Source of the DNA: a virus
Virus record (IMG/VR): IMGVR_UViG_3300043570_004127
Coordinates: 32,001-96,000 of that record
DNA: 64,000 bases
Direction: 5' to 3' (one strand)
In this document: piece by piece, positions 9,026-64,000 of the stretch
How positions within the stretch are numbered: the stretch's first letter is position 1
Layout: the number at the start of each line of letters is the position of its first letter
The notes under the pieces: generated by a model
What the model was told of the DNA's origin: nothing
The model's database searches: none
Seen by the model: only the letters and a program-made list of their open reading frames with translations
Translations under genes and position numbers: made by a program

Positions 9026-9026
9026 C

Positions 9027-17773: not shown

Positions 17774-18022
17774 ATGGGTCTTTTTCGTTCGTCTTCTTCT
17801 TTTCGTGAGCAGCAGCTTCATTCGGATATTATCCGTATTCGTCGTGAGCTCATAGAGGAACGCGGCATTTCCGACATGTTGTATGGGGTTATTATTGCTG
17901 ACCCTTGTGAATGTGATGTTCCAGAGGACAACAGCACGTATGGCCCCCTGCTCTATGAAGCGTTGAGCGCCTATCATAGGAATCGTCATAGGCCTATTAC
18001 TGGTCGTATGGAAGGTAATTGA
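17774..18022 (+). CDS. hypothetical protein
   Basis: TAGAAT-N6-ATG start. Confidence 0.6.
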   Translation: MGLFRSSSSFREQQLHSDIIRIRRELIEERGISDMLYGVIIADPCECDVPEDNSTYGPLLYEALSAYHRNRHRPITGRMEGN

Positions 18023-29013: not shown

Positions 29014-29208
29014 TTATGAAGGAAAGACTAAACCTTCACCATTTTCTAAAATCTGCTTGACTTCTGCTTTGATGATACCAAAGTCGTGAATATTTTCTTC
29101 TGTTTCGTTGACGCCTACTTCTTTTAATGAAAATCCGCGCATTGCAGCAATGTACATTGCTTCAACATCTCCTATTTGTTCCGCTTTTAAAACAACTTCA
29201 TCGTTCAT
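29014..29208 (-). CDS. small acidic protein coupled to the giant ORF
   Basis: 64 aa; start overlaps the 3' end of the 3687-aa ORF. Confidence 0.55.
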   Translation of the reverse strand: MNDEVVLKAEQIGDVEAMYIAAMRGFSLKEVGVNETEENIHDFGIIKAEVKQILENGEGLVFPS

Positions 29209-32200
29209 GTATTACAACCCCGTTCAGCATTGACGCTTTTATTGTTTTCCCGACTATTCGAGCGAGTCTATTCCCGGAAACACTATCAAACATCGCTGTC
29301 TTCTCTTCGGTATCTCCACCCTCTGGGATGTATCCATATTGGTCAACGAAATCCATCGCTACATCAATAACTGAAAACGGAAGATTTAGAGCATTTGCAA
29401 TTTCTACTACAGTTTCTCCAGCTTGCAGCATTTCGGTCAACTGTTGACGCTTGCTTGGTGACAGATTTTCAAGCTTCTCTATTGAACGAATCTGGCCTAA
29501 TGGCTGGGTATGTTCTGGTTTCTGCTTTGCTGTCCATATCACTAAGTCCATTGGAACGCGTTCCGTCATGTCGTCAAGTGAAACGCCGGGTTTTTTAGCT
29601 ACGAAATCCCTAAGGACAGCCTTGTCTGGTGTGCTTAGATTTCTGAACTGGTTCATCGCCTGACTGTCGCTTAGTGATTCCTGTAGTCGTGGTTTTGAAC
29701 CTGGAAAGAGGGTCGGCTGGTATGCGGGTTGCGGCGCATACACAACGTCTGGAAGATTCGGGTCAATTTCATTCATTGTAATTGCGTCAAAAACCTGATG
29801 CTTTGATATTTTTTGTTTTTTTGCAATTTCTTCTACTGTTACGCCAGATTCATATTCTGCAATTATCTTACCCGCAAAAGAATTCTTTGAAACTTTTTTG
29901 GCATTCATTTTAAAATCTGGTTTTGACATGTCGACGGCTTGACCACTGTCATCGAACTTTCCGTGAGCGTATGCAAGTGAGTCAAGAATTTCAAGTTCTC
30001 CACCCTTTATTTTTCTTGCAAGAAGTTTCGGTTCTTGACCAGACGTAACGTTTGTATCCCAAAGATAGAATTCATCTGCGGACTTAGCAACGGTAGGCAT
30101 TATGTCGTAGTTTCGTCTATTTACCGCAGGGATGATATGACGCGGAAGTCTTCGAGGGTCACTTTTTTCCCGTTCATCTATTCTGCCTACGAGAACGTTT
30201 TCTGGAGAAACGTTGTAGTGAGCAATAATCTCATAACCCTTATCTCGTGCAGCTTTTAATGTTCCAAATCCGGAATTGAATTGACCAGTCGAGTCATAAA
30301 CAACATCGTGTCCATTCTCGAGACCAACTTTAAGTGCAACATCTGCCATTATTCTGGATTCTTCGTGTGATGCGTCTCCCCAGTTGGGGTTTCCGTTTCT
30401 ATGCATCTCGATAGCTTCGGGAATAAGAGTTTTCATTTCGTCTGCATCAATGTGTACTGCGGCATCAACGGAAGGTATGTCGTGTTTCCCACTCAAACGA
30501 AGAGTGGATTTACCTGAACCTGGAGGTCCACCAACTGATATGAACCTTTTTGGTTCACCATCTTTTCGTATTGCCGTAACGGCTTTCGAAAGTGCAACAG
30601 CTATCGGCTGATATAGGTCCCAGAACCTTTCTTCCTTAATCTTCGTTGTTCCGCCAAATGTCGCATCCAAGCCGACAAATGGCTCGTCTTTCTGCGCCAA
30701 GAATGTTCCTATTGTTGTCGCCGGCCTCAAACTTGTGTAGTTGCTCGGATTGTATGTCGTGAGCTTTCCTTTGAATCCAAGTCGTTTAGCTATGGAATCA
30801 TTCATCTTTGGAAGGTTTTTGGGAGTAAAAGGAACTGGGTTCGGCTTTGCTGGCTCATTTTTCGTAAATCGTTCGAAGAGACCCATGGCTCCAGTTATTT
30901 TTGGCATTCTTGACAGAACGACTTCTGATTCTCCGCGTCGCGTAAAGTAGGCGACTACGTCTTTCTTGTTTACTGTTGCTTCAGCGACTAATGGCTTTTC
31001 ATTGCCTCTTGCCAATCTACCCGAAAACCATGTCGCTTTGGCTTTGTCTGTCGTCCAGGAAAGTCCATTCTGATTTTTCCCTTTTATGTATCCACGATAA
31101 ATTTTAATCTTATCTGGGAGTGAATCTAGCTCGTCTAACTCATCTTTTTTCATCATGTTCGACTTGCCAGGACGCTTTGAAGAAAGAGCAGATTTCCACA
31201 AATCTTTGTTTTGCCAGATGTTTTCGGAATCGACCCATATGTCGGAAAGCAAAGACCAATAGTCTTTGTCGTCCATCTCGTCTTTGACATCCATAAAAGC
31301 ATCTAGTCGATATGGTCGTTCATGTAGGTATATGTACGAACTCCAATTTTTACTTTTCCGCGCTTCTCCAACTGCTTCAAGTTTCTGCCTGTATTGCTGG
31401 TTTATCATTCCTGGCATCATCGGACCAATCCACATAACTAGTGGATGGCGCACTATAGGCATCCCTATTTCATTATTGAATTCGACAAAGGATTCCAGGT
31501 CCTTATCCAGAGGTTCATTTGCGTCCCTCATTAAATCTTCGAGTGCTTTTCTTGTTGTATCGTCAGACATTCTGCCGGTTATTCCACGGCCCTTGAGGTT
31601 GATGCCAGAAAGGGCAGCATTATCAATCTCTTCATCAGTCCATCGTCGTGGTTTTGATTTAGCCGAGCGCTTCTCCCTATTTAGTTCAACAGGGGTCAAT
31701 TGTCGTACTTTCATTGAGCCAGTTATTGATTGACCTTCTGGAATACTGTTTTCAGGGAGACTTCTGACAAAACTATTAACAAAAGCTGCGCCCTCTTTGG
31801 AGTATCTCTGTTTATTAAGGTCGACCTTGTATCTGGATACGGCTTCCTTTAACAGCTCGGATGCGATTCCCGACCTTTTGCTTTTCGGGTCAATAAATAT
31901 ATTTACATTTCCCTTTTTTTCTGATGGACCACCAGGTTGTTCTGCCGGCATATTCTGTGGATAATGATTTAGAATCCCAAGAATTTTCCCGTTCTTATCT
32001 CTGTAGAGGAGTGCGTCAACCCACCAACCTTTTTTTCTGAGTTCGTCATCCTCGCCCCTGAAGTAAGAAACTCCTGACGGCCCACTCTCTGGGTATTGTG
32101 AAACTTGTGAACGGAAAGAAAGAATAGGTTCAAATATTGAAACTTTCTTATCTTTCCAGCGCTTACCCCTGTATGTTATTCGATTTTTTTTTTCCTCTGG

Positions 32201-40372: not shown

Positions 40373-42682
40373 TTATTCATTGTTTAAAAGTTTTTCAAGT
40401 TCTTCCTGGTGCAGCTGTTTTATTGCTTCAATATCAATATTTATGAATTGCGACCTAGCGAAGTCTGCTAAGTCGAATTTCTCCGGATTACGTCCTTCGT
40501 CAATGTCAATCTGATAAGCAATTTGGAGCGTATCCCGGATGTCCCTGGCTTGAGAACTGGTGACCGAATCGATGGTGTTTTTTTCAAGGAATTTGGGGTT
40601 TTGAATTTTCTTTTTATTAAGGAATGATTCTCTTTCATTTTTCAAAAGTTTTGCAACCATCGCACTAGTTAATTGCTCTGAATCAAGCAGGGTGGCATCT
40701 CGTAGTTCTTCTGTTAAATGTTTTAGTGTTGTTGCTCGAGATATCTTTTCATCCACCTTTGAGTCTACTGTTTCCAGAATTTTATCTACTACGTATTCAG
40801 GTATTTTTGAATAATCGTCGCTTTCTCGAACCACCGACGTAGATTTCGGGATTGGACTAAGTCCAAAAGATGACCTTAGGTCGTCTTCTATTTGTTTTAT
40901 TCTCCTGTCAAACTCCGAGATTAATTTGCCTTCATCGTTCTTAAAGGCGAGACGAACACCAACCTCCTGCCCTTTACTGTTTTTTGCTGTGACATAAGGG
41001 TTATTCAACCATGAGTTATATCTCTCCCAATACTGGGATGGATTTATTTCTTTGGAAAATGTACCGAGAAAGTCGCGCACTTGTTGGGCTGCTGCAGTTT
41101 GGGGGTTTGCTGGGGTTTCGGAATGTGTAAAAACAACACCGAATGGGTCGTATAGAGCCCCATGGTCACTTCCTGATTTTCCCCACAGGAGCCCCAATTG
41201 TTCTATTTGTTTAGAAACTTTTTTTAATTGCGGAGCATACCCAGTCCCATATCTAGCATACTCTATCCCCCCAAATTTTGCGAATCCAATTTCAAAATTT
41301 CGTTTGCTATGTGCGTTTATGTACTTCAATCTGGTTGAGTCATCTTTCCACCAGAAAGTTAAACCACTAGATGGGTCACGTTTTCCTTGCGTAAAATATT
41401 TGAAATTGTCAATATCTTTTTGCGCCCATTTTTTAATAAATGGTAATTCTTTATGTGTGTCGCGTTGAGGTCCACCGCCAACGGCTTCCCTAAATGCTTT
41501 TGGACTTATTCCAAGTCCGGCCATCGCACCGGTGATTCCACCATTTTTCAGGTGTGACGAACGGGTGTGATAGTTATCTGGATTGTTCCAAAAAACATCA
41601 TTTCCTATTCTGTATCCTGCATCGCGAAGTGATTGAGCCATTTCTCTCGTTGAATTAAACTCGTCATTTAGTCCATGCAGCTGCATTGAGCGAGCGATTT
41701 TGAATAGTCGTGCTCCGTTTATGTTGTTTGTTGGGTCTTGACCGCCATCGAAATCCGGGTTAGCAATCCAGTCATGTTTTTTTATATCCCAGGCCATCGA
41801 CTGTAAGTAGAGCCCAGCTGCCGTCCTTAGTGATTCCAGGTATTCTGGATTGTTCTTTAAATCCTCTAATGGCTTTCCGCTGATGTCGTACCTAAAACCA
41901 TATCCGGCGCTTCCTCTGTCTATTGGGAATGTCCACCAATCAAAGTGCTGCTTGTGAAACTCTGCCCAATTTCTACTGTCGGCCCATGTTTTGAATTTCC
42001 TAGTTTGATTTGCCTGTTCCGATACAAGGCTATCAATTCCGCCAAATGGGGTGTTGTTTGTTTTCGCAACGTACTGTTTTGGTTTAGGTTTTTTGAACCT
42101 ATCCATCATCCCCATTTCGCCAGTTATTGAGTCACCTGGCGTTGGGTCTGGCATCTCTCTGGAGGTGCCATCAAAAATTAGGCCATTACTATTTGCATCA
42201 TTGCGTGTTAATGGGTTTTGGTCGCCGGTTATTTTTGCATTATTAAGAATTCGTCTTCCGATTCTGGGAAGAGCTTTTCCGGTTATGGCATCCCTATTTA
42301 TCCCGCCGTTTGTTATTGGAGGAATAATCCCACCACCAAAAGCCGTAACCGTACTCCCAGAAGGAGTCGGAGGGGGATTTAATATATCAGTATCAAGTCT
42401 TTCTCCAGAAAACGCTGCTCGACGTCGTTTTTTCTTTTTTACTCGTTTTGGAATAACTTCTTCAGTGTTTAGCTCCTTACCAGAACCGCCACCCGTCGAA
42501 CCGCTGTATGAATAGTGCGCACTGACTAATCCGACGCCATCGACAGATACTGGAGCATCAATCAATCGCTCTTTTAACTTCTCCCAGCCAGAAACGTTCT
42601 CTCCACGCAGCTTTCGTTTTTTTCGATTCTTGCGTTTTGGTGAAGATATCTCCGGCGTAATTTGTTTACTTTTATTATCCAT
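40373..42682 (-). CDS. 769-aa multidomain protein with OGFr/DUF1810-like segment
   Basis: long ORF; HFDWWTFP segment lies between ITGEM and ITGAM. Confidence 0.7.
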   Translation of the reverse strand: MDNKSKQITPEISSPKRKNRKKRKLRGENVSGWEKLKERLIDAPVSVDGVGLVSAHYSYSGSTGGGSGKELNTEEVIPKRVKKKKRRRAAFSGERLDTDILNPPPTPSGSTVTAFGGGIIPPITNGGINRDAITGKALPRIGRRILNNAKITGDQNPLTRNDANSNGLIFDGTSREMPDPTPGDSITGEMGMMDRFKKPKPKQYVAKTNNTPFGGIDSLVSEQANQTRKFKTWADSRNWAEFHKQHFDWWTFPIDRGSAGYGFRYDISGKPLEDLKNNPEYLESLRTAAGLYLQSMAWDIKKHDWIANPDFDGGQDPTNNINGARLFKIARSMQLHGLNDEFNSTREMAQSLRDAGYRIGNDVFWNNPDNYHTRSSHLKNGGITGAMAGLGISPKAFREAVGGGPQRDTHKELPFIKKWAQKDIDNFKYFTQGKRDPSSGLTFWWKDDSTRLKYINAHSKRNFEIGFAKFGGIEYARYGTGYAPQLKKVSKQIEQLGLLWGKSGSDHGALYDPFGVVFTHSETPANPQTAAAQQVRDFLGTFSKEINPSQYWERYNSWLNNPYVTAKNSKGQEVGVRLAFKNDEGKLISEFDRRIKQIEDDLRSSFGLSPIPKSTSVVRESDDYSKIPEYVVDKILETVDSKVDEKISRATTLKHLTEELRDATLLDSEQLTSAMVAKLLKNERESFLNKKKIQNPKFLEKNTIDSVTSSQARDIRDTLQIAYQIDIDEGRNPEKFDLADFARSQFINIDIEAIKQLHQEELEKLLNNE

Positions 42683-42691
42683 ATAGCTTTA

Positions 42692-43075: not shown

Positions 43076-43076
43076 C

Positions 43077-49403: not shown

Positions 49404-51472
49404 TTAGGCAATAGTCCCAGCAACTGTTTAAATACTTTGGACGAGGATGTTAGCTGTTGAATTCTGTTCAAATATATTGCCTGGGTAATCTTTAGGTGAA
49501 CCTTTTCCGCTTCCGACAACTTTCCATCTTTTGAAAGGTAGTCAGTAAACTTGCCGAAATCAAAATTGTTAGCGTCATCTATGAGTTTCTCGAATAACTC
49601 CATTGCTCTTTTTTTCTGCTTTTCTTGAAGTCCAAGAAAGTAATTTGTGTAAGTCGCGCGTTGTTTTTTATTGAAAAATTCGTTAAGTGACATCTGCCTT
49701 CTTTGGCGCAATTCTGTGGTTGAAAGACCAGAGAATCCGGATGATGGATTTACCGAAGCTATTGCTCTGATTTGTCCGTCAATCCGCACCGGAGCAATAT
49801 TTGAAGGGTTTCTATCTCGCGTATCCGTGAGGAAGTCCGATATTGCAATTCCTAGAATGTCTTCAGGGGGCATCATGTCTGCGGGTGTTTTTCTGATTTG
49901 TCGAGCAGTGCTGTCAACATCCTGCGCTTCAGCGAGCATATAGCTCCTTCTCTTTCCGCTTCCGGTAAGCCGAACCTTTGGAGCATTTAGACCCAATGAG
50001 CGCTGAACCTCTGATGCCAGTGCGGCGCCTAAGTGTTCAAAATCTTTTGTTGGTTGCACTTCAAAAACTGTTTGACCGTCTGCTCGTTCGTGAATTATTA
50101 CTCCGTTTTTTATCTTTCCGGTCTTGTACATGGAGCTACGTTTTACGGCTTCTGCACGAATTGTTGCTGACAGGTTCTCTATCGAACCACCTGCGTTTAA
50201 GTGTCTAACAGCTGATGCAAGGTCGTCAATTTTTTCGGAATCCGGAAGTGGTTCTAGCTGTCCATCTGATGCTGATGAGCGGACTTTTGGTCCTTTCTTC
50301 TTAGCAAATATTTCATACTGCCATCTGCGCATTTGACGCTTTGCAGATTCTCCTGGCAGTTTTGCCATAATCATTTCGTTTGGATTATTGATACCCCTGA
50401 ACTTCTCTTCATAGGAAATTCCATCGCCCATTTCCGAGGCAATAAACTCAAGCGCTGCGGTTGGGTTTTCGGCCGTGCTCATTTTTTGAGCTTGGCTAAT
50501 CGTCTTGCCCAGTTTTCTGCGCTCTCCAACTGTTAGCGGGCGTGCTTTTGAGAGGCTCAATGTTGAGCCGCCTGGAAGAACGTAGTAAACACTGTCGACT
50601 CCGGTGTTCGACAATAATCCCATCTCATCTTGACCGATAATGTTTGGTGTAAGTGCGGTTGTAATAAACGAGGCACCTTCCATGTCTCTGTTGTCTGGCA
50701 CTGTTCTTAAGACTGCTGGAGAAACAACTGGCTGAAGAATAAATCCATCACGACGAACAAGACGCATGTACGGTTCGGTGACATTGGATAATTTTTCTAC
50801 GATGTTTGATACTTCCCTAACCTTCAAAGCTCTATTAGCCGTTGAGACTTTTGGTATCTGTGGAGCTCTTGATTGTAGAACCTCTCCTGACACAGAAAGA
50901 GAAGCAACTCCGCGCGAACTGCTTGCTTGTCCACGACCGGAGACGGCGTCTCGCAGCGCTCTTCCAATTGCTCTTCCGATTGCGCCAGGAAGGTCAAATA
51001 GTTGTTTTCCACACGTTGAGCGTCTCTCATCGGTAAACCGTCCACCAAACTGATAACCCTCAGGACACCTAAATCCACGGGTTGGTTTGGTCGCCCTAAG
51101 CGGGTTAAGGCTTGGAAGTCGTAGATTTGGGCCGCCACCTGGTGTTAGTAGCGATGCGGCTATTGAGCGTTTTGGCGAACGAAGCATTGTTAGATTGCCT
51201 GGAGTAACTGCGCTACCTAGGCCCTGTGCTGCCTGAAGAAGTCTGCTATCCGAAGAAACTTGACCGACCTTTACTTCGTATCCACGCTTGCCTTCTTTTC
51301 TTTGCATCTTGCATTTAAAGTTGACTGCAGCATTTTTGGTGTCAGCAAAAGAAATTGGGCTCAGGAATATATTCGGTCTTGTTATTGCTAGTTCTGGCGA
51401 TAAGTAACGAACCCTGTAAATCGGGTTTTCGGATTTTTCTCCGCAACAATCAGAAATCAAATAAGTTTGCAT
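49400..51472 (-). CDS. 690-aa protein with C-terminal HipA/PI3-PI4-kinase-like domain
   Basis: E...A......LGLNAP, DFLTDTRDRNPSN catalytic-loop-like motif. Confidence 0.7.
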   Translation of the reverse strand: MQTYLISDCCGEKSENPIYRVRYLSPELAITRPNIFLSPISFADTKNAAVNFKCKMQRKEGKRGYEVKVGQVSSDSRLLQAAQGLGSAVTPGNLTMLRSPKRSIAASLLTPGGGPNLRLPSLNPLRATKPTRGFRCPEGYQFGGRFTDERRSTCGKQLFDLPGAIGRAIGRALRDAVSGRGQASSSRGVASLSVSGEVLQSRAPQIPKVSTANRALKVREVSNIVEKLSNVTEPYMRLVRRDGFILQPVVSPAVLRTVPDNRDMEGASFITTALTPNIIGQDEMGLLSNTGVDSVYYVLPGGSTLSLSKARPLTVGERRKLGKTISQAQKMSTAENPTAALEFIASEMGDGISYEEKFRGINNPNEMIMAKLPGESAKRQMRRWQYEIFAKKKGPKVRSSASDGQLEPLPDSEKIDDLASAVRHLNAGGSIENLSATIRAEAVKRSSMYKTGKIKNGVIIHERADGQTVFEVQPTKDFEHLGAALASEVQRSLGLNAPKVRLTGSGKRRSYMLAEAQDVDSTARQIRKTPADMMPPEDILGIAISDFLTDTRDRNPSNIAPVRIDGQIRAIASVNPSSGFSGLSTTELRQRRQMSLNEFFNKKQRATYTNYFLGLQEKQKKRAMELFEKLIDDANNFDFGKFTDYLSKDGKLSEAEKVHLKITQAIYLNRIQQLTSSSKVFKQLLGLLPK

Positions 51473-52136: not shown

Positions 52137-52187
52137 CCAATTTCCCCTGGTTTAATTGTACGCACAAAACCAGCGCGATAAATAATG

Positions 52188-52538
52188 TCAAGACTTAATA
52201 TGTTTATTGAAATATGTTTGCTTTGACGCTTTCTCCAGCGAACTCATGGATATTCGTACTTTTTCGTTATATGGGTTTGTCTCGGTTCGTCTTGGTATCA
52301 GTTTTATGAACTCTGACTGCCACTTTTGGTCCTCGAAGTCCATCGACCAAAGAAACTTCTGATAGTCGTTGTCTTTCAATGGGACCACTTCTGGATTGGT
52401 CGCGATAAAGGACATAAACGAAACTGGTGCCTGACTCTTGCCATCGGAATAAATACCGTCAAACTTGTCCGCCCCAGAGACGAAGTAGAGCTTGCCAGAG
52501 TCACCTACGTTTGCCACTAAGTGTTTTTCAATTGCCAT
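52188..52538 (-). CDS. hypothetical protein downstream of the 2470-aa ORF
   Basis: 116 aa; GAGG RBS. Confidence 0.65.
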   Translation of the reverse strand: MAIEKHLVANVGDSGKLYFVSGADKFDGIYSDGKSQAPVSFMSFIATNPEVVPLKDNDYQKFLWSMDFEDQKWQSEFIKLIPRRTETNPYNEKVRISMSSLEKASKQTYFNKHIKS

Positions 52539-52548
52539 AAAACGACCT

Positions 52549-55500
52549 CTATTTATCTTTCATCGTTGAGAGAATCGCATAGAGCTTGACCATTGGAGGT
52601 ATTTCATCAAGACTAACAGATTCCTGTTTTGCAGATTTAATTGACGAGCCAAGTCTCCCAAATATCGGTTTTACAATCTTGGAGGCAACATCTCTGATTT
52701 TTTCTGTCTCCTCAAAGTCGTACAGCCCACCATCAGCACCAGCTCTAAATTGTGGAACGATATCAAGGTCTTTATTCTGTCCGAAAAGCCACCATGCGCT
52801 AAATGCTTCAGCAAATTTTTCAGCGTTATTCGTAGCGCCGTACTTCGTTACCGATGATAGCTGACCAAAATCCTTTTCTAGCGATGTACTCCAACTAGAA
52901 GCATTATTTGACTTTCTTGATGCTAATGTATCGAGCACATGACCCATTTCGTGCACCATTACACCGTAAGCAAGACGTTTCGCCATCTCTTCTTTTTTTG
53001 CTTTGATTTTTAATTCATTTTCTGGCGTACGAGTTATTTTGTTGTTGTTTTCAAATTGCAAGAAGATGTCATGAACGCCATGGTATTTTTTCCCAATTTG
53101 TGCTTTTAGATTTGATAATGCCTGTCCGCGCAATTTTGTATCCATTACAAATGTATCTGCTATTTCATCAGACGCATTGGAAATTCGCCCAACCGGTATT
53201 TCCATTTCAATTATTCCAGCATCATCGTCCATGGAGACAAAACCAAGGAGCCCTTCTTCATCGTTTGTGGTTAAGTCTCTTTTGACTCTAAAACGCATAT
53301 CAGAAGCAGCTCTTCCGCCAAATAAATCTTCTGCATCAAAATTTGACAAAATGTCATCTAGGGCTTGAAGCGATGCAAAATGCGCCGTTTTGTAGGAATC
53401 GCCCTCATCGAATATGTCGTCAATTTCCATTTCTAAATCGTATTTTTTTTTAAAATATTTGGTCTGCTCTGCGGCTGTTCTGCCAAATTTTGCTTCATGC
53501 TCCTTTGTAGATGCGACCTTAACCACACCAGACTTGTCGCGGCCATAAGGGAGTGTCTTGGGTCCTTTTTCAACTACCTCATCAAGCGTTCTACCTACCG
53601 ACATTTCTCCCGTTAGCGAGCTCTCAACCACGGTATTGGGTTTTTTTTTAGTGCTCTGCGAAAGACTCATCGCGCCAGTTATTCCTGAGGCGATGTTGTC
53701 TTTATCCCCACCACCCTTTGCTTCACGCATGTCACTGATTATGTCTTCCATCTGCTTTTCAATTTTGTTTCTTATTGCTTCTTTTGCAGTGGTTTTTTTA
53801 GATGCTTTTTTATCGAAGGCTTTAGGGTCGAAAACGTTAAGTCCATATTTGTTAGTTATTGAAAGCTTTATGCCTTTTTTGTCCATTGACTTTCGCATGG
53901 CTTCTGCGGCTTCTAGTCTGAGGTATTTATCAACGTCCTGCTTCAGGTCGAACTCGGCTGCTCCAAAGCGGTTCATGCCTTTTTGAATTTTGTCAGGTAT
54001 CACAAAGTCCCTTGGTGAGGAGGAAAGCATGTCTCTAATGATTTTTCGTTCTTCTTCGGTTGGATTGATTCTGTCCATTGCGGCATCGGAGATAATCTTT
54101 TCCTTAAGACCATTTAGGAAAGATTCGCTTTCCTTGATGTATGCGTCTTTGCCCATTGCCGAATTTGTTGCTGGAGAATCAGGGTGACCGTCAATGAAGT
54201 TTTTTGGAATCGAATCGAATGGTATTTTTATTTCGTCAATATCGTCGGAGTTAAATCCCCCAGCAATAAACGCCTCACGTGGCTCCCACGAGCGACCTGG
54301 GCTTGTCGCGTACTTTTCTTTTCTATATGCGTCGTGGTTATTTTTAAAGCTATTGTATAGGTGCTCAATTATGTTTTCTGCACGGTTGTCAGTCTTGAAA
54401 GCAGCATCAACATGAGCCCTAGCAATCACTTCATTGTCTGAGCTGTTCATGCCGACTGGCTCAATATGGTTATTGAACAACTCGCCGTTTCCGTACGCTG
54501 TTCTGTCAGCAACACCAGGGTTTAGAATAACTTCAGCGTTTCCAAAATTCCAGTCATTACCCCTAGTTCGCTTGGAGTGGGGAAAATCTACAAGGTTGGG
54601 GGAGTATCTTTCCGGATTCTCTTTACCACTGTTTTTGAGGAATTTATTAATGTCGCTCTGTTCTCTTTGAAGTTCATCCATGTGTAGAACAAAACCCGAT
54701 GCCGGACGTAACTCAACTGGGGTGTCTGGGTGTATGCCAATATCGGCTTCGTATTTTGCAAGTATCTTGTCGAGACCTACAATCTCGTTTCTTTGATGGC
54801 TGTTCTTGAACCCGTTTTCAATAAGGTCTTTCAAGAATCTTCCAGGAACGTGCGTGCGAGGCTGTTTATCTAAACCCTCGTGGAAGTCAAGAATTGAAAA
54901 CTCCAGTTCCTTCTTTAGCTCTTCGATTGGTGTTTCGTTTAGGTATCTGTGGAAATCTGGGTTAAGGCCATTGAGAGCATTCTTAACATCAAATATGTTC
55001 TTCTTCCAGTCGTCGTCATTTGGGCCGTCTGGTGGAGGGGAGCCAGGTGGGGCAGCGGCAGCAGCCTGTGGTCCCTCTGAATTCGGAATGAAGTCAGTCT
55101 TAATCACGTCCTTCAACGCAGTAAGAACATTAATTCGTTCTTTGTTTCTGGCTTCCTTTGTCTCACTGATTAGCGTTGGTCCGAGCATCGTGTCGGCAGG
55201 GTTCAAATCTTTTATATAGCGCACACTTGTGTCTCCGCCAAAGTTTCCGCCAGGCCCATTGATTGAGCGCTTGATTTCTGCGGTCTTCCGATTTGATTTT
55301 CTAGTTGAAGATATTTTCATCGATGTTCGCATCGCGCCAGTTACACCGCTGCTACTTGATGATTGATAAAGAGGAGCGGATAGAACCTTTTCTGGACTTG
55401 GGTCTATGCCTTCTTTTTTCAGCTTGACCGCTCTTGCCATAAGCGCATGTGCTGCTAGGTTGTAGTTTTCGGGTTGACGAGCACTGCGAAGTCGTGACGA

Positions 55501-58500
55501 AACACCGAATATTGGCTTATTAACCCCGACTAATTGTCTTTCATCTGATGGCCCTAGATTGCTGACAATAGTGTCTTCGGTGTCTCCCACGACAAGATAG
55601 GCCGAACCACGAAGGTTATCTTCCCATCTTATGTACGAATCTTGGTCTTTGACATCTATTGCAAAGGGGCCAGCTCCCCGTGCGGTATTTTGTGCTTCCG
55701 TGTAATACTTCGCTACGTCCTCTGGGATATCTGCAGCGGCATTTCTACCGTAGTATCCATCTGTAGTAACACCGCTTGATGCTGGATATGCGCTCAAAAA
55801 TCCAAAGTCTGGGCTTTCGTTAATTCTCGCTGCGAGTTTGCTGGCTCGAGTTTGTTGTGCCTGAAGTTCCGTGAGCCTTCTGTTCCCATCTTCAATCAAG
55901 GGCCTTATTCCGTCTCGCAGTGGAAGTGCTGTTATATCTAGTTCTTCGCCCTGTTTGGCGCCATACTGGGAGGAAATACCGAGCAGTGAATTGATTGAAT
56001 CTGCTTCTTCCCTGTTTTGTGGTGTGAACTTTGTTTGTCCTGCATTCAGGGCAGACATTATTGTTTCATATGTTGCTAATTTTTTTGCATCTTGTCGGAA
56101 TTTTTCATTAAAATTACCAATTTGCATTCTGTTTAGGGCGCCAGTATCGCCAGGTGAACCAGCTCCCATCCCAGCAGTAGATGTTCGTGAAGGATTAAGA
56201 ACTCCGCCATCCAGTTGCGCCTTGCCTACGTGAATCACAGCTTCTTGATTACCGTCGAGTTTGAACGCTTCAATATCGCCATCGTTTCTTCGTTTTTGGA
56301 GTTCTTTACCCTCCTCGACGAGTCTTCTGTATTCTTCCTCAGGCACGTCTTCTATGTCGAGAATTCCTTGCTCTACTCTTTCCTTCTTGGTGCGCGCTAA
56401 GAATTCCTGAAGAACGACTTCTTTTTTAGAATCAGAAATTTTCTTTTCTAATTCTTGTTTGAACTTGGCGAGCCCCTCTTTCTCAACTTCTTCTTTTGTT
56501 AGGTTGCGTGGAGTTACGTCAGCGTCAAATCCGTCTAGGGATGTCTTGTCTTTACCGCGAGATAGGACAACTCCAAACTCCCCACCTCTCCACTCACCAG
56601 TCGCCTCAAGTGCAGCCATGGCTTTCTCTAAACTATCGACCCTATTCCTGGCTTTTTCGCTTCGTTTATCTTGCTTATCAGTTGATTCGGAAACTATATT
56701 TCTAAAGTTTTGAGGAGCCAGGGAAACATCCATCGAGCCAGTTACGCCGCCATTCCGCTCAAGTACTTGCTGTTCAAAATCAACGATTGCTTTTTCGAAA
56801 TCATTCTGAGCTTCAGTAACTCTTTCCTTTTGCGACTTCATATCGAGGACGGTGGTTGGAAGGTTCTTTTCTATGGCTTTATCAACCAACGCTGCCATTA
56901 CCATTCCTGCCGCCTCAGAGTCTGCGTCGGCAGTGTGATGCTTGGAACCCAAATCAACGCCAAGATATGCCGTAATATCTGCTAGTCCATTTGATGCTTT
57001 TCTTGTTTCTGGAATCACAGTGCCGTCATCCAGTATTTTTTCTTTTACGAGCTTGGATGGGCCTTCTGGGTTTTCAGGTGTCCAGCGTGGCAGTGTGTGC
57101 TCTGATATGTCTTTTGTATCTAGGTAACCAGAAGGCCTCCACTGAATCCCAAGTTTTTCTAGAGTCGCATCAAGTACATCTTTGTCAAACGGTGCATATT
57201 GAACTCCAAATATTGCATTTTCGCCGGCAAAATCCGCAAGCATCTGATGGGCCTTTAGCATGCTTTCCTGGGTGTCCAAATACGCATCGGTCAGTACATT
57301 GCCATCTTTGTCTTTAAGGTATTTCGCAGACCATTCACCTAATGGTTGGTCTGGTTTCATGAATACATTAAGGCGGTCAATTACTTTTCCACCCTTCATT
57401 CGTACGGCACCTATTTGGACCGGAGAACCCTTGCCTATAGTGCGACCGTCGCTGTCGTTTTCTATTCCAGTTGTTTCATAGTCAAAGAAGATTATTTCTG
57501 TTTCGTCATATATTTTTTTAAACTCTTCCCAGGTTTTTGCGCTTCCAAATATTTTTTGAGCATCGCCGAGAAATGAACCATACGTAGGTTCGCGCGGGTA
57601 GCGCGGTTTGTCTTGCTCGACAGACATTGCACCAGTAATCCCACTTCGCAGACGAGCTGCGCTGAGTGGCTGCCATTGCTTTTTAGGTTTTTTGTTTTTA
57701 TTTCTAGCTTTTCTTTCGTCTTGTTTTACCCACCCCTGAACCTGTTGTGCATGCAGGCTGGTTCGGCGCTGGCCACCACCCATGTCCATCGCCCCAGTTA
57801 GATTCCATGTTCCAGGTCGAACACCAAAGGTCCCAGACCCTGAATCGTTGAGTCTTCGTGTCACTTCTGCGGAGGTCATCGGCGTTCCAGGAATTCCTAT
57901 TCTTGCCGTTCGTGAAGGCCCGGTACCTGAAGCCGCGACTGCATCAGAGAATTCTTGAACATAATTGGCGTTTCTCGTACTCTGTCTAACCGGTCCCCTA
58001 CCACCTGGTCTTGGTGACCTGAGATTAAGCGGGTATCTTTGCGGCGAGAGCATTCTGGCCTGGCTGTTAGTTTCGCCATAGAGTCTTCTAGCTGCGTAAT
58101 ACTCTGCTCTTGTCTCAATAGGGTTAGAAGCAGCATATTCCCCACCAGCAAATTGAGCCATAAGCATTAGGTCTTCAGCTGTATCGGTAATGTTGTTTAC
58201 TACCGCTTCAGTAAATGCGTCGTAAAACTCAACGAGGTCTTTTTGTAGGTCTGCAGAGTTAAAGTTTCCGCGTCCTCCCATGTACTGTCTAGTCTTGAGA
58301 TTTTGAGCGGCATCCATTACGAGCTGGATGCTCGGACTATTCATTGGATTCCGCATGTTGGTGAAATCTATTTCCCATCCACCGTTCTCTTTTCCAGGAC
58401 GCCAAGCTGGTGCTCCACCAGTAGTGGCACTGCCGGCAAAGTATGTAGGGTTTGACGGGTATCGAGCCATTCTGTTTACGTCGAATCCAAGAGCCTGCAA

Positions 58501-59961
58501 TGCTGTAGAGAAGTGCGCAAGGTGTCCAAATTCGTGAGTGGCCGTATAGTGCATGTCGCCCTCGACGGAATCATGTATTCCGCCACTGCGTGCATCGCCG
58601 TTATGAAAACCTAACGAGCTCTGGAACAGAGCTGCAGGGTTTATTCTCATAATGACGTGAACTCCGCCCTGTCCGGCATTCCGTCCAGCCACTAGTTTTT
58701 TCCCTGCAGCACTTACAAGTCTCCCGTTGGAATCTATAGCTGGTCCGAAATGGTCCAGTGAAACTTCAAATGCACTCCCCATGTTGTAATCAACCTGGAA
58801 CTGAGTTACTAATTTTGCATGGTCCGGATTCGCAATTGCCTCAACAATTGTTGCCTCCCAGAACGCCCGAATTCCCCTTTTTGCCTCACCCTTTTGCTCC
58901 CATCTCAGATTCGATGGAATCGCATTTTGGAAATATGCTTTAAATTCATTCGGCTCAACATTGGGGAACATTTGTGTCATTACCCTCATGAAGGTTGCTT
59001 CATCGGTAATGTCTCCGATGTCGTCACCGTTCGGAAGTTTTATCAATCCGGAACGTATCATCTCGTGATTTGTCATAGCAAGCATCGTTGACCGTTTACC
59101 ACGTTGGGTTTTTTCTTTCCGGCCCAAAAGATAAGGTTCACTTGGTCCAGACCTTCTGGATGGGTCATACCTCTGACCGACACCTCCAGACATTGCTCCA
59201 ACAATTCGCCCACCAACAGCCATTCGGCTAGATACTTCGTCGTACCCCATGTCCAAAAAATCTTGCTGGGTTAGGTTGTTCATGTCTCTTGCTGCTTGGA
59301 ATCCACTTGGGGTTCTTCCACCAACTTGTGACGCATCCGCAATTGCACTTCCTGCACGTCTTGCTATTCGTCCTGCGCTTCCGGCGGCTGTGCGTGGAGA
59401 GACAATAAAACAGTTAGACATTCTTTGGTCAGTAAACTGGTTTGCTGCCGGACTTCCTTCAGGACAGCGAAGTTTGTTCTTGTCATCCACCCATGGCTTT
59501 AAACCAAACTTCCCCATCATGGAGCGTGCAAGAAGGGTATCTATTTCGTCCCTAAGTTTCGGACCAAGAGACTTTGAGTCAAGATGTAAATCTGGGTGTT
59601 TAAATTTAACTTTCGGCTTTTTTGTTTGATATTCTTTTTGCAAATTGTAATAATTTGTATCTGTATGCAATGGGTTGCCAAACTTACACAAATGCATAGT
59701 CATCCCTGGTGGGATTAGGGGAAGTGGGTCACTTTGCTTCCATGTTTTAAGAAATGCGTCGTATGGATTCTTAAAAGGATTTTCTTCTTCTTTTGATTTT
59801 TCGTCTTTTGGTTTAGACTCTTTTGGCTTGGCTTCTTTTATGTCAAGGGTCGGACCAGTAATTAATTTTGCGTCCTTGTTTTTGACAGCTCTCGCTATCG
59901 CCCTGTTGATGAAATCGTTTTGTCTATAGCCCACTGAAGGTCTCCCAGCGCGAAGCCACAC
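52549..59961 (-). CDS. 2470-aa multidomain polyprotein (zincin, DEDDh exonuclease, DUF3626/ART-like, second zincin)
   Basis: HEFGH...ETRAE; FFDYETTG...FD...HTADAD; RPASG...RTAY...EAFIAGG; HEMGH...EKFAEAF. Confidence 0.85.
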   Translation of the reverse strand: MWLRAGRPSVGYRQNDFINRAIARAVKNKDAKLITGPTLDIKEAKPKESKPKDEKSKEEENPFKNPYDAFLKTWKQSDPLPLIPPGMTMHLCKFGNPLHTDTNYYNLQKEYQTKKPKVKFKHPDLHLDSKSLGPKLRDEIDTLLARSMMGKFGLKPWVDDKNKLRCPEGSPAANQFTDQRMSNCFIVSPRTAAGSAGRIARRAGSAIADASQVGGRTPSGFQAARDMNNLTQQDFLDMGYDEVSSRMAVGGRIVGAMSGGVGQRYDPSRRSGPSEPYLLGRKEKTQRGKRSTMLAMTNHEMIRSGLIKLPNGDDIGDITDEATFMRVMTQMFPNVEPNEFKAYFQNAIPSNLRWEQKGEAKRGIRAFWEATIVEAIANPDHAKLVTQFQVDYNMGSAFEVSLDHFGPAIDSNGRLVSAAGKKLVAGRNAGQGGVHVIMRINPAALFQSSLGFHNGDARSGGIHDSVEGDMHYTATHEFGHLAHFSTALQALGFDVNRMARYPSNPTYFAGSATTGGAPAWRPGKENGGWEIDFTNMRNPMNSPSIQLVMDAAQNLKTRQYMGGRGNFNSADLQKDLVEFYDAFTEAVVNNITDTAEDLMLMAQFAGGEYAASNPIETRAEYYAARRLYGETNSQARMLSPQRYPLNLRSPRPGGRGPVRQSTRNANYVQEFSDAVAASGTGPSRTARIGIPGTPMTSAEVTRRLNDSGSGTFGVRPGTWNLTGAMDMGGGQRRTSLHAQQVQGWVKQDERKARNKNKKPKKQWQPLSAARLRSGITGAMSVEQDKPRYPREPTYGSFLGDAQKIFGSAKTWEEFKKIYDETEIIFFDYETTGIENDSDGRTIGKGSPVQIGAVRMKGGKVIDRLNVFMKPDQPLGEWSAKYLKDKDGNVLTDAYLDTQESMLKAHQMLADFAGENAIFGVQYAPFDKDVLDATLEKLGIQWRPSGYLDTKDISEHTLPRWTPENPEGPSKLVKEKILDDGTVIPETRKASNGLADITAYLGVDLGSKHHTADADSEAAGMVMAALVDKAIEKNLPTTVLDMKSQKERVTEAQNDFEKAIVDFEQQVLERNGGVTGSMDVSLAPQNFRNIVSESTDKQDKRSEKARNRVDSLEKAMAALEATGEWRGGEFGVVLSRGKDKTSLDGFDADVTPRNLTKEEVEKEGLAKFKQELEKKISDSKKEVVLQEFLARTKKERVEQGILDIEDVPEEEYRRLVEEGKELQKRRNDGDIEAFKLDGNQEAVIHVGKAQLDGGVLNPSRTSTAGMGAGSPGDTGALNRMQIGNFNEKFRQDAKKLATYETIMSALNAGQTKFTPQNREEADSINSLLGISSQYGAKQGEELDITALPLRDGIRPLIEDGNRRLTELQAQQTRASKLAARINESPDFGFLSAYPASSGVTTDGYYGRNAAADIPEDVAKYYTEAQNTARGAGPFAIDVKDQDSYIRWEDNLRGSAYLVVGDTEDTIVSNLGPSDERQLVGVNKPIFGVSSRLRSARQPENYNLAAHALMARAVKLKKEGIDPSPEKVLSAPLYQSSSSSGVTGAMRTSMKISSTRKSNRKTAEIKRSINGPGGNFGGDTSVRYIKDLNPADTMLGPTLISETKEARNKERINVLTALKDVIKTDFIPNSEGPQAAAAAPPGSPPPDGPNDDDWKKNIFDVKNALNGLNPDFHRYLNETPIEELKKELEFSILDFHEGLDKQPRTHVPGRFLKDLIENGFKNSHQRNEIVGLDKILAKYEADIGIHPDTPVELRPASGFVLHMDELQREQSDINKFLKNSGKENPERYSPNLVDFPHSKRTRGNDWNFGNAEVILNPGVADRTAYGNGELFNNHIEPVGMNSSDNEVIARAHVDAAFKTDNRAENIIEHLYNSFKNNHDAYRKEKYATSPGRSWEPREAFIAGGFNSDDIDEIKIPFDSIPKNFIDGHPDSPATNSAMGKDAYIKESESFLNGLKEKIISDAAMDRINPTEEERKIIRDMLSSSPRDFVIPDKIQKGMNRFGAAEFDLKQDVDKYLRLEAAEAMRKSMDKKGIKLSITNKYGLNVFDPKAFDKKASKKTTAKEAIRNKIEKQMEDIISDMREAKGGGDKDNIASGITGAMSLSQSTKKKPNTVVESSLTGEMSVGRTLDEVVEKGPKTLPYGRDKSGVVKVASTKEHEAKFGRTAAEQTKYFKKKYDLEMEIDDIFDEGDSYKTAHFASLQALDDILSNFDAEDLFGGRAASDMRFRVKRDLTTNDEEGLLGFVSMDDDAGIIEMEIPVGRISNASDEIADTFVMDTKLRGQALSNLKAQIGKKYHGVHDIFLQFENNNKITRTPENELKIKAKKEEMAKRLAYGVMVHEMGHVLDTLASRKSNNASSWSTSLEKDFGQLSSVTKYGATNNAEKFAEAFSAWWLFGQNKDLDIVPQFRAGADGGLYDFEETEKIRDVASKIVKPIFGRLGSSIKSAKQESVSLDEIPPMVKLYAILSTMKDK

Positions 59962-60011
59962 ATTTACGCTTAGCCCGATTTGTTGGTTGGTATGACACCA
60001 ACAATATTACA

Positions 60012-61508: not shown

Positions 61509-61882
61509 GAATTTTGCTCCTTGTATTGCATCGAACTTGACAGACAGCCTTTTGGGTTGCTGCAACCACCACACGGATTCATGCGTTTTTCGCCTGAAAC
61601 TATGCAGTGATATTTATATGAAATTTTTTGTTGCTGTACAGGTTTAGCATAACCCATAACAGGGGTTCTTTGGCTGACGTTACCTACTTTAGGACGTGTG
61701 AAGCGTGTCGATTTACCACTTGCGAGATGAGTCTCTTCGGACTTGATTTGAGTCTCGATGACATCCAGTTTCTTATTGAGTTCTCCCACCAACTCAAAGT
61801 TATTTTGGACAATCGCTGAGTCGCGCTCAAATTCAATATTTTTCACAGCGTAATTGAGTAATTCCGTACGTTTCTCGTTCAT
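61505..61882 (-). CDS. hypothetical protein with Cys cluster
   Basis: C...CGGC....C; ATGA overlap with the next gene. Confidence 0.65.
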   Translation of the reverse strand: MNEKRTELLNYAVKNIEFERDSAIVQNNFELVGELNKKLDVIETQIKSEETHLASGKSTRFTRPKVGNVSQRTPVMGYAKPVQQQKISYKYHCIVSGEKRMNPCGGCSNPKGCLSSSMQYKEQNS

Positions 61883-61890
61883 TTCGTGGG

Positions 61891-63999
61891 TTATCCCGAA
61901 AAACTAGATAGTTCGTAGTTCTCTAACGGTTGTTCTTTTTCAATTTGGGATATCACATTGACGAGGGCATTAACCCCATCAACGCCGACAGAGGCAAGCC
62001 CTGTCACCCATATTCCGTCATCGTTTGCGGTTGAATTAAAACCGTGGTATTCAGCGACAGTGTCAACAGCTGATTTGATATCGAATATAAATGATGGGTG
62101 AATATCTATCTGGAACCCATCAATTTGATTCGATTGAATCTGGAGGCCAGACTTGACCTCTAGGTCATGATTCTCTGAAATTGATACATATACGCTCAAC
62201 TCAGACTTACCTCTAGCTGCTGCTGCTCTGGCAAGGACGTTGCTTCTACGCTCACGCATAATTGCCTGACGAATCCTTTTGCGTGCTTTTTCTTCGGTAA
62301 TCATATTTCTTTTTGCAAGATGTCTGATTGCCGCATCCATAGCGCGCTTTGAATCGCTAGGTGGCTTTGATTCATCAATCCCAAATTCACGCAATTGAGC
62401 AAGAATATTATCGCCACGATTCCTCAAGCCCATTGCTCCAGTAACCCCACCAGCCGGAACCCTCTGAGGTGGCGCTGGTACGGACGGACGGCTCGGGCTT
62501 GGTGCTGGAGAAGGGCGGCCTGGGACACGACTTGGAGCAGGCTTCGGAACGCGAACTGGCTCGGGAAGTCTTTCTGGAATTTTGTCTGGTATTTCTTCTG
62601 GCTTTGCAGGCATTTTGGGCTCAATGTACGGAACATCATCTTCGCCGGTTATGGGGTTCGTGGTTCTGCCATCGCTGTCGCCGTCGCGTGAAGGTTTACC
62701 CATTCGACCAGCAGCACGACGAGCACGACCAATTGTCCCACCGAGAACTTTTTCGTTAATTGCTTCAAGTGCATTCATTAGCGCATTTTGTGCTTCTGGA
62801 CCGTACCAGTCCATATTCGGGATAGCAAAACCGTCTGCAAGCAACTCGACTTCAAATCCGTGCGAATTTCCGATTTCATTTGCCGCTTCGTACATTTCTA
62901 CATTTTGTGTTTTCACAAACATATGTAGACCTGGTGTTTCGTCTTTGAAGGATGTCCATGATTTCATTGCCGATTTACCTGTACCGCATTTTCCGCCACA
63001 CCCACAATCACTGTGGCTGTCGTCATTTCCATGGAGTTCAGAATCACGACGCATTAGAGAGTCGTAGAAATCTCCACCGTCAACAAATCTCTTGGGTTTG
63101 TCACTGGTAAGGGCAACCGAAGGTCCGCCATCAAGCGGGATATAAACGGTTTCTGGCTTAACTTCGTGCGCCGTGCCAAACATAAATCTTTCGCCATCCG
63201 GGGTGTGCCATCCAGCCCGCATTGTCGACGTCGAGTTGTCTTTGTCTAAATCAAAGATGACCGTACTTTCATCCGCTTCACGGATGGCTACCTGTCCACC
63301 GAAATGCATGCTTAGATGGCGAACAAGGTCGCCCATTCTCCCGCTTATAGGGTTTATTGAAGAACTCCCACCAGAGTAAATTGACATGTTTTTGACCTCA
63401 ATTTCGGAGTCTGACTTCTTTTTTGTGTTGTCATATCTGTCCAAAAGCCGACGTCCTTTTGCTGCGAGCTTTGCGGCATCCTCGGTGTTCTGTGGCACTG
63501 GTTCGCCCCACGCCGCAGCTGAAAGCGCAAGTCGTGTTGGCTTTCCGTTTTCATCCTTCATTGGACCGCTTGGATTAGTGAAGAATCTTGTAAGGAATGA
63601 ACCTTTGCGGCGCATCTTTTGTGGAGTGTCAGCAGGACCCTTGACGCCTGGTTTCAAATTTGCACCTTCGGTCTTTTTGAAGTGAGCCCTACCTGCTGCA
63701 GTTAGCCCGCCATCTGGGTCCTTAAGTGCAGACTTTGCCTCTGCGCTATCGGCTGGAACGCAATTTGGGACCATATCCCCATTCTTTCCCTTTTTCATTC
63801 CAACTTGCTTATACCCAGGCCAGCATGGACCTACTTTTGCAGCCTTCACCGATTCATCTGACTTAATCGAGATGGTTCCAGTTAACTGGTTGGCACCATG
63901 AAGAACAGGACTTACCTCGTATAGTTCAACCTCCTTAAGGAGGTTGGCTTGCTTCTTGCTATCGAAGAAGGCATCAAGTGTTTTGTAACCAATTGACCA
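61891..63999 (-). CDS. HK97-family prohead protease with long C-terminal extension (5'-truncated by window edge)
   Basis: The frame is open upstream of 63849 and reads WSIGY...KEVELYEVSPVLHGAN, the catalytic Ser and ExSxV..AN motifs of HK97-type proteases. Confidence 0.88.
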   Translation of the reverse strand, partial: WSIGYKTLDAFFDSKKQANLLKEVELYEVSPVLHGANQLTGTISIKSDESVKAAKVGPCWPGYKQVGMKKGKNGDMVPNCVPADSAEAKSALKDPDGGLTAAGRAHFKKTEGANLKPGVKGPADTPQKMRRKGSFLTRFFTNPSGPMKDENGKPTRLALSAAAWGEPVPQNTEDAAKLAAKGRRLLDRYDNTKKKSDSEIEVKNMSIYSGGSSSINPISGRMGDLVRHLSMHFGGQVAIREADESTVIFDLDKDNSTSTMRAGWHTPDGERFMFGTAHEVKPETVYIPLDGGPSVALTSDKPKRFVDGGDFYDSLMRRDSELHGNDDSHSDCGCGGKCGTGKSAMKSWTSFKDETPGLHMFVKTQNVEMYEAANEIGNSHGFEVELLADGFAIPNMDWYGPEAQNALMNALEAINEKVLGGTIGRARRAAGRMGKPSRDGDSDGRTTNPITGEDDVPYIEPKMPAKPEEIPDKIPERLPEPVRVPKPAPSRVPGRPSPAPSPSRPSVPAPPQRVPAGGVTGAMGLRNRGDNILAQLREFGIDESKPPSDSKRAMDAAIRHLAKRNMITEEKARKRIRQAIMRERRSNVLARAAAARGKSELSVYVSISENHDLEVKSGLQIQSNQIDGFQIDIHPSFIFDIKSAVDTVAEYHGFNSTANDDGIWVTGLASVGVDGVNALVNVISQIEKEQPLENYELSSFSG

Positions 64000-64000
64000 C

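Follow-up and report, generated by a model that had tools for sequence, protein, structure and literature searches.

A recurrent Gly/Met junction motif in giant head-module proteins of uncultured tailed phages: a probable processing site with lineage dialects

What marks the joints of a phage protein that strings together one enzyme module after another, and is the chain taken apart at those joints? The question is raised by a stretch of viral DNA of 64,000 nucleotides, hereafter the window, which covers bases 32001-96000 of the 169,327-bp record IMGVR_UViG_3300043570_004127. In the long open reading frames (ORFs) of its head module, a five-residue motif, [IVL]-[TS]-G-x-M, recurs many times over. 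An earlier note on this DNA had drawn attention to the motif and had proposed that it is a processing signal, or else a docking or recombination module. Here we find that the motif is selected at the protein level and marks the breakpoints of module shuffling, and we argue that it is probably a cleavage site between the domains of polyvalent proteins carried as virion cargo.

The motif and its carriers

Strict matches to [IVL][TS]GxM number 20 in the 13,026 amino acids (aa) of head-module protein, against 0.48 expected, this figure being the mean of within-protein shuffles (the highest of 1000 shuffles gave 4). This is the comparison with shuffled controls that the earlier note had proposed as a check. 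All 21 copies that it had counted were recovered where it had placed them, its numbers being the lowest base of each Met codon, and its distribution over four proteins stands as well: ten copies in a 3687-aa protein, two in a 769-aa protein, six strict copies plus an IVGAM variant in a 2470-aa protein and two in the extension of the prohead protease protein. The head-module genes lie on the minus strand. Starting from the portal side, they encode a 750-aa portal-MuF protein (beyond the window), the 830-aa S78 protease with DUF6321 and the extension, an acidic 520-aa protein and the 2470-aa protein, then proteins of 228, 690, 2108, 769 and 3687 aa and finally the 453-aa HK97-fold major capsid protein. 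The interval from the protease gene to the capsid gene is about 33 kb. The four carriers are as follows.

29198..40261, minus strand: 3687-aa polyvalent protein, 11 modules separated by 10 motif copies; Nudix, helix-turn-helix (HTH)/sigma-r4, DnaJ, weak GNAT and zeta-toxin kinase recognised
40373..42682, minus strand: 769-aa protein, 3 modules, 2 motif copies; no family match
52549..59961, minus strand: 2470-aa polyvalent protein, 7 motif copies (6 strict and IVGAM); zincin, DEDDh exonuclease and a second, lethal-factor-like zincin
61891..64000, minus strand: S78 prohead protease, DUF6321 and extension, 830 aa, 2 motif copies; residues 1-128 beyond the window end

The individual copies, numbered by residue of the carrier, are these.

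38255..38269, minus strand: ITGAM, 3687-aa protein, residue 665
35657..35671, minus strand: ISGFM, 3687-aa protein, residue 1531; G and M invariant in 7 aligned relatives; coil with predicted local distance difference test (pLDDT) <50
35138..35152, minus strand: ISGAM, 3687-aa protein, residue 1704; directly ahead of the Nudix-module fold
34157..34171, minus strand: ITGAM, 3687-aa protein, residue 2031
33560..33574, minus strand: ITGSM, 3687-aa protein, residue 2230
32750..32764, minus strand: ITGAM, 3687-aa protein, residue 2500; about 10 aa ahead of the J-domain start
32219..32233, minus strand: ITGSM, 3687-aa protein, residue 2677
31712..31726, minus strand: ITGSM, 3687-aa protein, residue 2846
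31568..31582, minus strand: ITGRM, 3687-aa protein, residue 2894
30884..30898, minus strand: ITGAM, 3687-aa protein, residue 3122; site of an extra module in relatives
42113..42127, minus strand: ITGEM, 769-aa protein, residue 186
41522..41536, minus strand: ITGAM, 769-aa protein, residue 383
59191..59205, minus strand: IVGAM variant, 2470-aa protein, residue 253; upstream edge of the zincin module
57787..57801, minus strand: LTGAM, 2470-aa protein, residue 721; downstream edge of the zincin module
57625..57639, minus strand: ITGAM, 2470-aa protein, residue 775; ahead of the DEDDh module
56731..56745, minus strand: VTGSM, 2470-aa protein, residue 1073
55330..55344, minus strand: VTGAM, 2470-aa protein, residue 1540
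53668..53682, minus strand: ITGAM, 2470-aa protein, residue 2094
53602..53616, minus strand: LTGEM, 2470-aa protein, residue 2116; ahead of the ATLF-like zincin
63334..63348, minus strand: ISGRM, protease protein, residue 346; just past DUF6321; GRMG core kept in the related genomes G001 and G002
62431..62445, minus strand: VTGAM, protease protein, residue 647

Aligned with one another, the copies extend the consensus to [GS][GSN]-[IVL]-[TS]-G-[AS..]-M-[GSA]-[VL]. A position matrix derived from them gives the strict head copies scores of 18-28 and the IVGAM variant 13.5, and nothing comparable turns up in the capsid, portal, 2108-, 690-, 520- and 228-aa proteins. The motif had been described as missing from the non-head genes. 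Within the window this is largely so: three regex matches in plus-strand non-head ORFs (VSGDM, ITGRM and ISGFM, in 9009-9797, 17774-18022 and 25955-26602) score below 9 and are probably due to chance. It does not extend beyond the window. In the genome outside the head module, the regex matches 10 times where 1.8 matches are expected, and three of these, including a perfect GGGITGAMSGGG, fall in the 1671-aa tape-measure protein.

The copies had also been said to use varied synonymous codons, so that conservation would be at the protein level, and codon counts agree. In the window copies, all four Gly codons occur, and the Ser residues draw on both the AGY and the TCN family. Relatives use two codon families apiece for Ser (TCN, AGY), Arg (CGN, AGR) and Leu (CTN, TTR). 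The motif is thus selected at the protein level.

Joints, module shuffling and dialects

Mapping of domain boundaries and predicted structure, another check that had been proposed, places the copies between domains, in predicted disordered linkers. No copy lies inside any Pfam or PDB-sequence-matched domain of the head-module proteins. In the 3687-aa protein, Nudix (1811-1939) sits within the module 1704-2030, the J-domain begins about 10 residues past the Met of copy 2500, as it does at the N-terminus of free DnaJ proteins, and the zeta toxin occupies residues 3236-3381; in the 2470-aa protein, RNase_T (824-961) sits within the module 775-1072 and ATLF (2281-2395) within the module 2116-2470. 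The claim that successive motifs bracket single recognisable domains therefore stands for Nudix, DnaJ, the zeta kinase and DEDDh, to which two zincin modules can be added, whereas GNAT is below threshold in Pfam and the ART-like domain has no Pfam match. In an AlphaFold2 (AF2) model of residues 1481-2080 of the 3687-aa protein, built from seven collinear relatives, all three copies covered are in coil with pLDDT <50, and the Nudix module (pLDDT 80-90) starts directly past copy 1704. The distance from motif to fold differs among relatives, the motif sliding by up to tens of residues in the alignment, as expected of a linker. Some pieces between copies are very short (22, 48 and 54 aa).

Relatives of this phage are uncultured. 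IMG/VR holds 378 loci with query-related capsids, the best 80 of which show 71-78% identity, on contigs of up to 170 kb; the nearest cultured phages are Gordonia and Brevibacterium myoviruses, with a capsid identity of only 47-50%. Eight partial giant ORFs adjoining related capsid genes have 4-9 motif copies each. Among 15 homologues of the 3687-aa protein in a collection of 5.8 billion proteins, 12 carry 6-10 copies and three distant ones carry 1-4. Conservation reaches 0.82 at the four fixed motif positions; the overall value is 0.67, and the flanking residues score 0.57. If the ORFs are split at each motif copy, homologous modules can be aligned over almost their whole length. Whether related phages swap domains at the motif had been posed as a further check, and indeed modules are permuted, inserted and deleted exactly there. 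A GNAT-like module that precedes the zeta module here follows it in loci L007, L010 and L014. At copy 3122, four relatives have an extra module of about 300-430 aa with one copy on each side, whereas the window phage and its closest relative have a single copy and lack the module. The motif is therefore a marker of the breakpoints of module shuffling.

The motif also varies by lineage. Five dialects are found among the sub-lineages: [IV][ST]GxM, GP[VI]GxM, D[ST]GxM, [ED]AGM and [KRS]LSSG. Even within the first of these, G002 uses ISGRM almost exclusively (P=6e-7 for Thr/Ser and P=5e-4 for x=Arg, compared with the window). A sister clade, comprising G003-G005 and many other loci, has no TGxM and uses [KRS]LSSG, with 12 copies in G004 (0.21 expected), 9 in G003 and 7 in G005. 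GP[VI]GxM is used in L078 and G006, D[ST]GxM in G008 (11 copies against 0.13) and [ED]AGM[ST] in G009 (8 against 0.17). In G006, G008 and G009 (loci L191-L196), single ORFs of 5,347, 6,494 and 5,251 aa stand directly upstream of the capsid gene, and each of these giant ORFs is punctuated by its own dialect. The head module of G007 (L197-L198) also has long ORFs, of up to 2,609 aa, upstream of the capsid gene; none of the Gly/Met motifs occurs in them, and TPTP/PTPGT repeats abound (15, with 0.07 expected). A Met with small neighbours is common to four of the five dialects, and in the LSSG dialect Leu may stand in its place.

Motif-like strings also occur in the tape-measure protein (genome 110701-115716, plus strand, outside the window), where copies are found at residues 45 (LTGAM), 588 (LSGAM) and 852 (ITGAM). 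In six genomes the tape-measure protein carries the dialect of its own genome, partly at aligned places (around residues 45 and 588), and shuffle tests give P=0.001 (G000), 0.011 (G001) and 0.005 (G003). Over 52 distinct tape-measure proteins, TGxM-type strings number 55 against 8.8 expected and LSSG-type strings 22 against 7.5, a 3-6-fold enrichment, although these proteins are homologous and the counts are therefore not independent. The window phage's tape-measure protein also has a C-terminal LAS-type peptidase signature, SSDH..AYDL..HLHV.

Cleavage, candidate enzymes and competing explanations

Of the explanations that had been offered, a processing signal fits best: a protein-level signal at domain borders is what we observe, whereas recombination at the DNA level is unlikely because the codons are so diverse. 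We therefore consider the motif to be, probably though not beyond doubt, an inter-domain cleavage site of virion-cargo polyvalent proteins; cleavage itself, like packaging, delivery and timing, is something that we infer. A cutting signal is most likely because, at corresponding joints, related phages have versions of their own. According to the scheme we propose, four long chains, whose enzyme and DNA-binding modules total about 7,750 aa, would be translated from genes between the prohead protease and the capsid. Each chain would be loaded into the procapsid by one targeting event. A phage-encoded protease would then cut every [IVL]-[TS]-G-x-M linker that is exposed, whether still within the head or once the chains have been ejected into the host, yielding about 25 separate products. 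The scissile bond may adjoin the Met, as x↓M (zincin-style P1') or M↓small; this is a guess, made because four of the five dialects centre on a Met beside small residues.

Which protease might do the cutting? Two zincin modules are embedded in the 2470-aa protein.

57802..59205, minus strand: embedded zincin module, residues 253-720, HEFGH at 476; between IVGAM and LTGAM
52552..53616, minus strand: second zincin module, residues 2116-2470, Pfam ATLF, HEMGH at 2337

The first is present in all TGxM-type genomes examined. It has 32 database homologues, and in 26 of them the motif lies about 230 aa away on each side; HExGH and a downstream Glu are invariant in 24 aligned sequences. Such flanking is the layout usually seen in a polyprotein protease. 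Residues 253-720 have no Pfam match. In a confident AF2 model of the module (pLDDT 80.5, predicted template modelling score 0.83) the N-terminal motif is disordered, and an exhaustive structural search with this model returned the catalytic domain of anthrax lethal factor at the top (Z 7.5, 185 residues), followed by two uncharacterised metallopeptidase-like proteins (M90-like among the top matches), PPEP-2 and PPEP-3 (Z about 5). The five best matches are all zincins of the lethal factor/PPEP/MtfA group, but at Z scores of only 5-7.5. ESM feature matches include the Pro-Pro endopeptidase family (score 0.91), and an ESM-Atlas shape search reached a template modelling score of only about 0.4; an Atlas feature search with residues 665-1530 of the 3687-aa protein gave no usable match. 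Every lineage has its own zincin or zincins within the same proteins, and the HExxH/zincin modules of different dialects cannot be aligned to each other. Profile comparison between the TGxM-type zincin and the second HExxH module of LSSG-type phages detected no relation (probability 1.3%). MPTase-PolyVal occurs between LSSG copies in LSSG-type genomes; this domain (PF18818) is absent from TGxM-type genomes, with no match at E<=1 in the whole 169-kb genome. The ATLF-like zincin was considered as the common enzyme and rejected, being absent from other TGxM-type phages; none of the genomes G001-G005 has it, and we regard it as lineage-specific cargo. The embedded lethal-factor/PPEP-like zincin (residues 253-720) is slightly favoured. 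Motif copies stand on both sides of it, it is not the same from one dialect to the next, and we tentatively propose it as the processing enzyme.

The obvious competitor is the S78 prohead protease, which could cut the sites within the procapsid much as T4 gp21 and phiKZ gp175 cut internal head proteins. Here the capsid protein becomes important.

27507..28868, minus strand: HK97-fold major capsid protein, 453 aa, zero motif copies; N-arm KSIGQMF after a coiled-coil delta-like region

Several observations speak for S78. The genes that bear the motif are enclosed by those of the protease and the capsid, and the protease chain itself has two copies, the first at a conserved place just past DUF6321. 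In LSSG-type phages, S78 forms the N-terminus of a 2947-3723-aa polyprotein that also contains ArdC-N, MPTase-PolyVal and a UvrD helicase. An S78 protease is present in all six lineages in which the region was examined, with the catalytic His66 and Ser130 invariant in six phages, and studies on giant phages offer a strong precedent. However, the motif has no copy in the capsid protein here or in the capsid frames of about 40 relatives, which argues against the prohead protease as the enzyme. In T4, the capsid site and the cargo sites conform to a single consensus. Judged by homology, the conserved capsid K↓SIGQMF junction resembles the HK97 K103↓S104 site and not the motif. Moreover, the S78 domains of TGxM-type, LSSG-type and G007 phages share at least 70% identity, although these phages differ in junction content. 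When a 41-aa ITGAM linker was modelled together with the S78 domain, the predicted complex scored 0.00, which is evidence neither way. On balance we consider S78 a rather unlikely processing enzyme. Two other capsid segments, ASLT[GS] and L[ST]SRE, were considered as dialect-matched sites and dropped, as they did not track the polyprotein dialect in 79 aligned capsids. The position of DUF6321 also differs: it follows the S78 domain in TGxM-type phages, and in LSSG-type phages (G003-G005) it has an ORF of its own, immediately downstream of the capsid gene. That the enzyme is another protease or one of the host is improbable. The host version, in which specificity would differ between host lineages, has an analogue in Prp, the host protease that cuts the capsid and scaffold proteins of staphylococcal phage 80alpha. 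Dialects could then track hosts, and a cytoplasmic enzyme would have access to the motif-like copies of a protein outside the head, the tape-measure protein; but every lineage carries zincins of its own in the very proteins concerned, and cytoplasmic cutting before assembly would forfeit the advantage of loading a single chain. We regard it as quite improbable.

It is also conceivable that nothing is cut. The motif would then be a conserved flexible hinge or a docking peptide for a common partner (the capsid inner wall, scaffold, portal, DNA or a host chaperone), and the chains would remain intact beads on a string, like the N4 virion RNA polymerase, which is packaged and ejected uncut. The disordered, exposed context of the copies would suit such a role, co-evolution with a binding partner would also produce lineage dialects, and some polyvalent proteins are delivered full length according to Iyer et al. 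(PMC5512222). Nevertheless, a five-residue motif with invariant Gly and Met that recurs at nearly every joint between domains, and on either flank of a protease module, is typical of polyprotein cut sites; no candidate partner was identified, and pieces as short as 22, 48 and 54 aa make poor candidates for functional beads. An uncut chain is therefore distinctly unlikely in our view. A signal in the DNA, whether a recombination linker or internal ribosome-binding sites with the motif Met as start codon, would account for module indels and permutations breaking at the motif, for the skewed codon usage described below and for ATG in four of the five dialects. Such a signal is hard to reconcile with interchangeable codons (both families for Ser, Arg and Leu, and all four for Gly), with the LSSG dialect, which has no Met and sits at the same kind of borders, and with the lack of a consistent Shine-Dalgarno string at a workable distance; we consider it very improbable.

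Several results weigh against the proposed cleavage scheme. ACT is over-used in the motif, encoding 12 of 17 Thr (25% genome-wide), as is ATA, encoding 9 of 15 Ile (31% genome-wide), a bias for which the scheme does not account. The nearest isolates, which are actinophages, lack the motif: Gordonia phage Gray and Brevibacterium phage Cantare show no enrichment. In four further genomes the tape-measure strings did not match the polyprotein dialect, and a head-packaged protease does not obviously explain motif-like copies in a tape-measure protein at all. Foldseek with the zincin model found nothing in PDB at E<=0.001, and the assignment depends on a moderate Z of 7.5 and HExGH. Finally, the link between zincin type and dialect comes from very few independent lineages, and fast-evolving cargo would be unalignable too. 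As a separate observation on codon usage, the combined ACT and ATA bias creates a recurrent ATAACTGG string with an out-of-frame TAA.

If the cleavage reading is carried further, one arrives at a speculative picture, which we consider possible without thinking it likely. A large clade of uncultured tailed phages (about 140-170 kb) may run a polyprotein strategy like that of RNA viruses, in which a motif-flanked embedded zincin cuts the cargo into dozens of effectors and protease and site co-evolve into at least five dialects, each distinct from the others. The cargo chains would span 2,000-6,500 aa and take up to a fifth of the genome, and cutting would possibly occur only after ejection into the host. 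Dialects would keep modules exchangeable within a lineage, perhaps not between lineages.

Known systems and the remaining genes

The proteins described here are polyvalent proteins as understood in PMC5512222: giant multi-domain proteins of phages and conjugative elements, encoded beside virion genes, in which enzymes of counter-defence type (Nudix, zeta-like kinase, nuclease, HTH and zincin) are combined. Nudix, DnaJ, zeta toxin, HTH/sigma-r4, RNase_T and two zincins are present in the 3687- and 2470-aa proteins, and the genes have a late, virion neighbourhood, between portal-MuF with S78 and the HK97-fold capsid. LSSG-type relatives have the hallmark pair ArdC-N and MPTase-PolyVal. The window phage differs in lacking the hub domain MPTase-PolyVal, having a lethal-factor/PPEP-like zincin instead. 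Iyer, Burroughs, Anand, de Souza and Aravind (2017; PMC5512222) predicted that polyvalent proteins are processed by embedded zincins or assemblin-like peptidases and gave no cleavage-site motif. The prediction extends to packaging in the virion and delivery into the host; for the present phage we infer both. The assemblin-like (S78) domain was reported at C-termini (PMC5512222), whereas it is N-terminal in LSSG-type relatives. The layout expected of an embedded protease is seen both here, with the zincin between IVGAM (253) and LTGAM (721), and in relatives, with MPTase modules between LSSG copies.

Prohead proteases follow short codes: L/I-x-E for T4 gp21, S/A/G-x-E for phiKZ gp175 and A-x-E for SPN3US gp245. 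Cut-site consensus motifs of this kind are described in studies of T4 and SPN3US. Shared with the present phage are a short consensus found repeatedly in many proteins of the head and of ejection, and a head module with a phage protease of HK97/assemblin fold, here a Pfam S78 domain with its catalytic residues. There are also differences. The sites in T4, phiKZ and SPN3US mostly remove propeptides from separate proteins, whereas here they separate whole domains in polyproteins; the capsid shares the consensus in those phages and has no copy here; and the Gly and Met residues are unlike the Glu-directed codes.

Cut sites of eukaryotic viruses include those of adenovirus, (M/I/L)XGX↓G and (M/I/L)XGG↓X, of the African swine fever virus protease pS273R, GG↓X, and of picornavirus 3C. 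As a lead only, domain-by-domain release and a protease flanked by its own sites recall the polyproteins of these viruses, and the aliphatic-x-Gly-x pattern recalls the adenain consensus. Their proteases, however, are cysteine or chymotrypsin-like enzymes, no such protease domain was detected here and no homology is implied. The embedded module resembles the lethal factor/PPEP/MtfA zincins (MEROPS M34, M90) in its invariant HExGH and downstream Glu. Lethal factor cleaves the N-termini of mitogen-activated protein kinase kinases and PPEP cleaves Pro↓Pro; neither specificity is like TGxM.

Neither this Gly/Met junction motif nor its lineage dialects turned up in literature searches. Polyvalent proteins and protease cut-site codes are known; the present motif and its dialects appear to be undescribed. 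A five-residue junction code with natural dialects makes the 2017 processing prediction directly testable. It would also permit giant phage ORFs to be parsed automatically into functional units, improving the annotation of thousands of metagenomic phages, and provides a handle on the loading and release of large phage effector arsenals. Orthogonal protease/site pairs could result as tools. The motif further bears on how domain shuffling in phage cargo stays in frame.

Between the motif carriers lie two large proteins.

43077..51472, minus strand: head-module proteins of 2108 aa (43077-49403) and 690 aa (49400-51472); zero motif copies here

Neither has a Pfam or PHROG match, and a PHROGs search of the 2108-, 690-, 769- and 520-aa proteins and the tape-measure protein returned no match. 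Homologues of the 2108- and 690-aa proteins have one motif copy each in G001 and G002, and 2-5 LSSG copies in LSSG-type phages. The 520-aa protein (window 60012-61574, minus strand) is highly acidic, rich in Met, Asp and Glu, has a weak PepSY match and is kept across all dialects; it occupies the position expected for a scaffolding protein. The portal protein (750 aa; genome 96483-98735, minus strand), encoded just past the window end, carries at its C-terminus a fused Phage_Mu_F domain, which frequently serves as an anchor in polyvalent and toxin proteins of phages.

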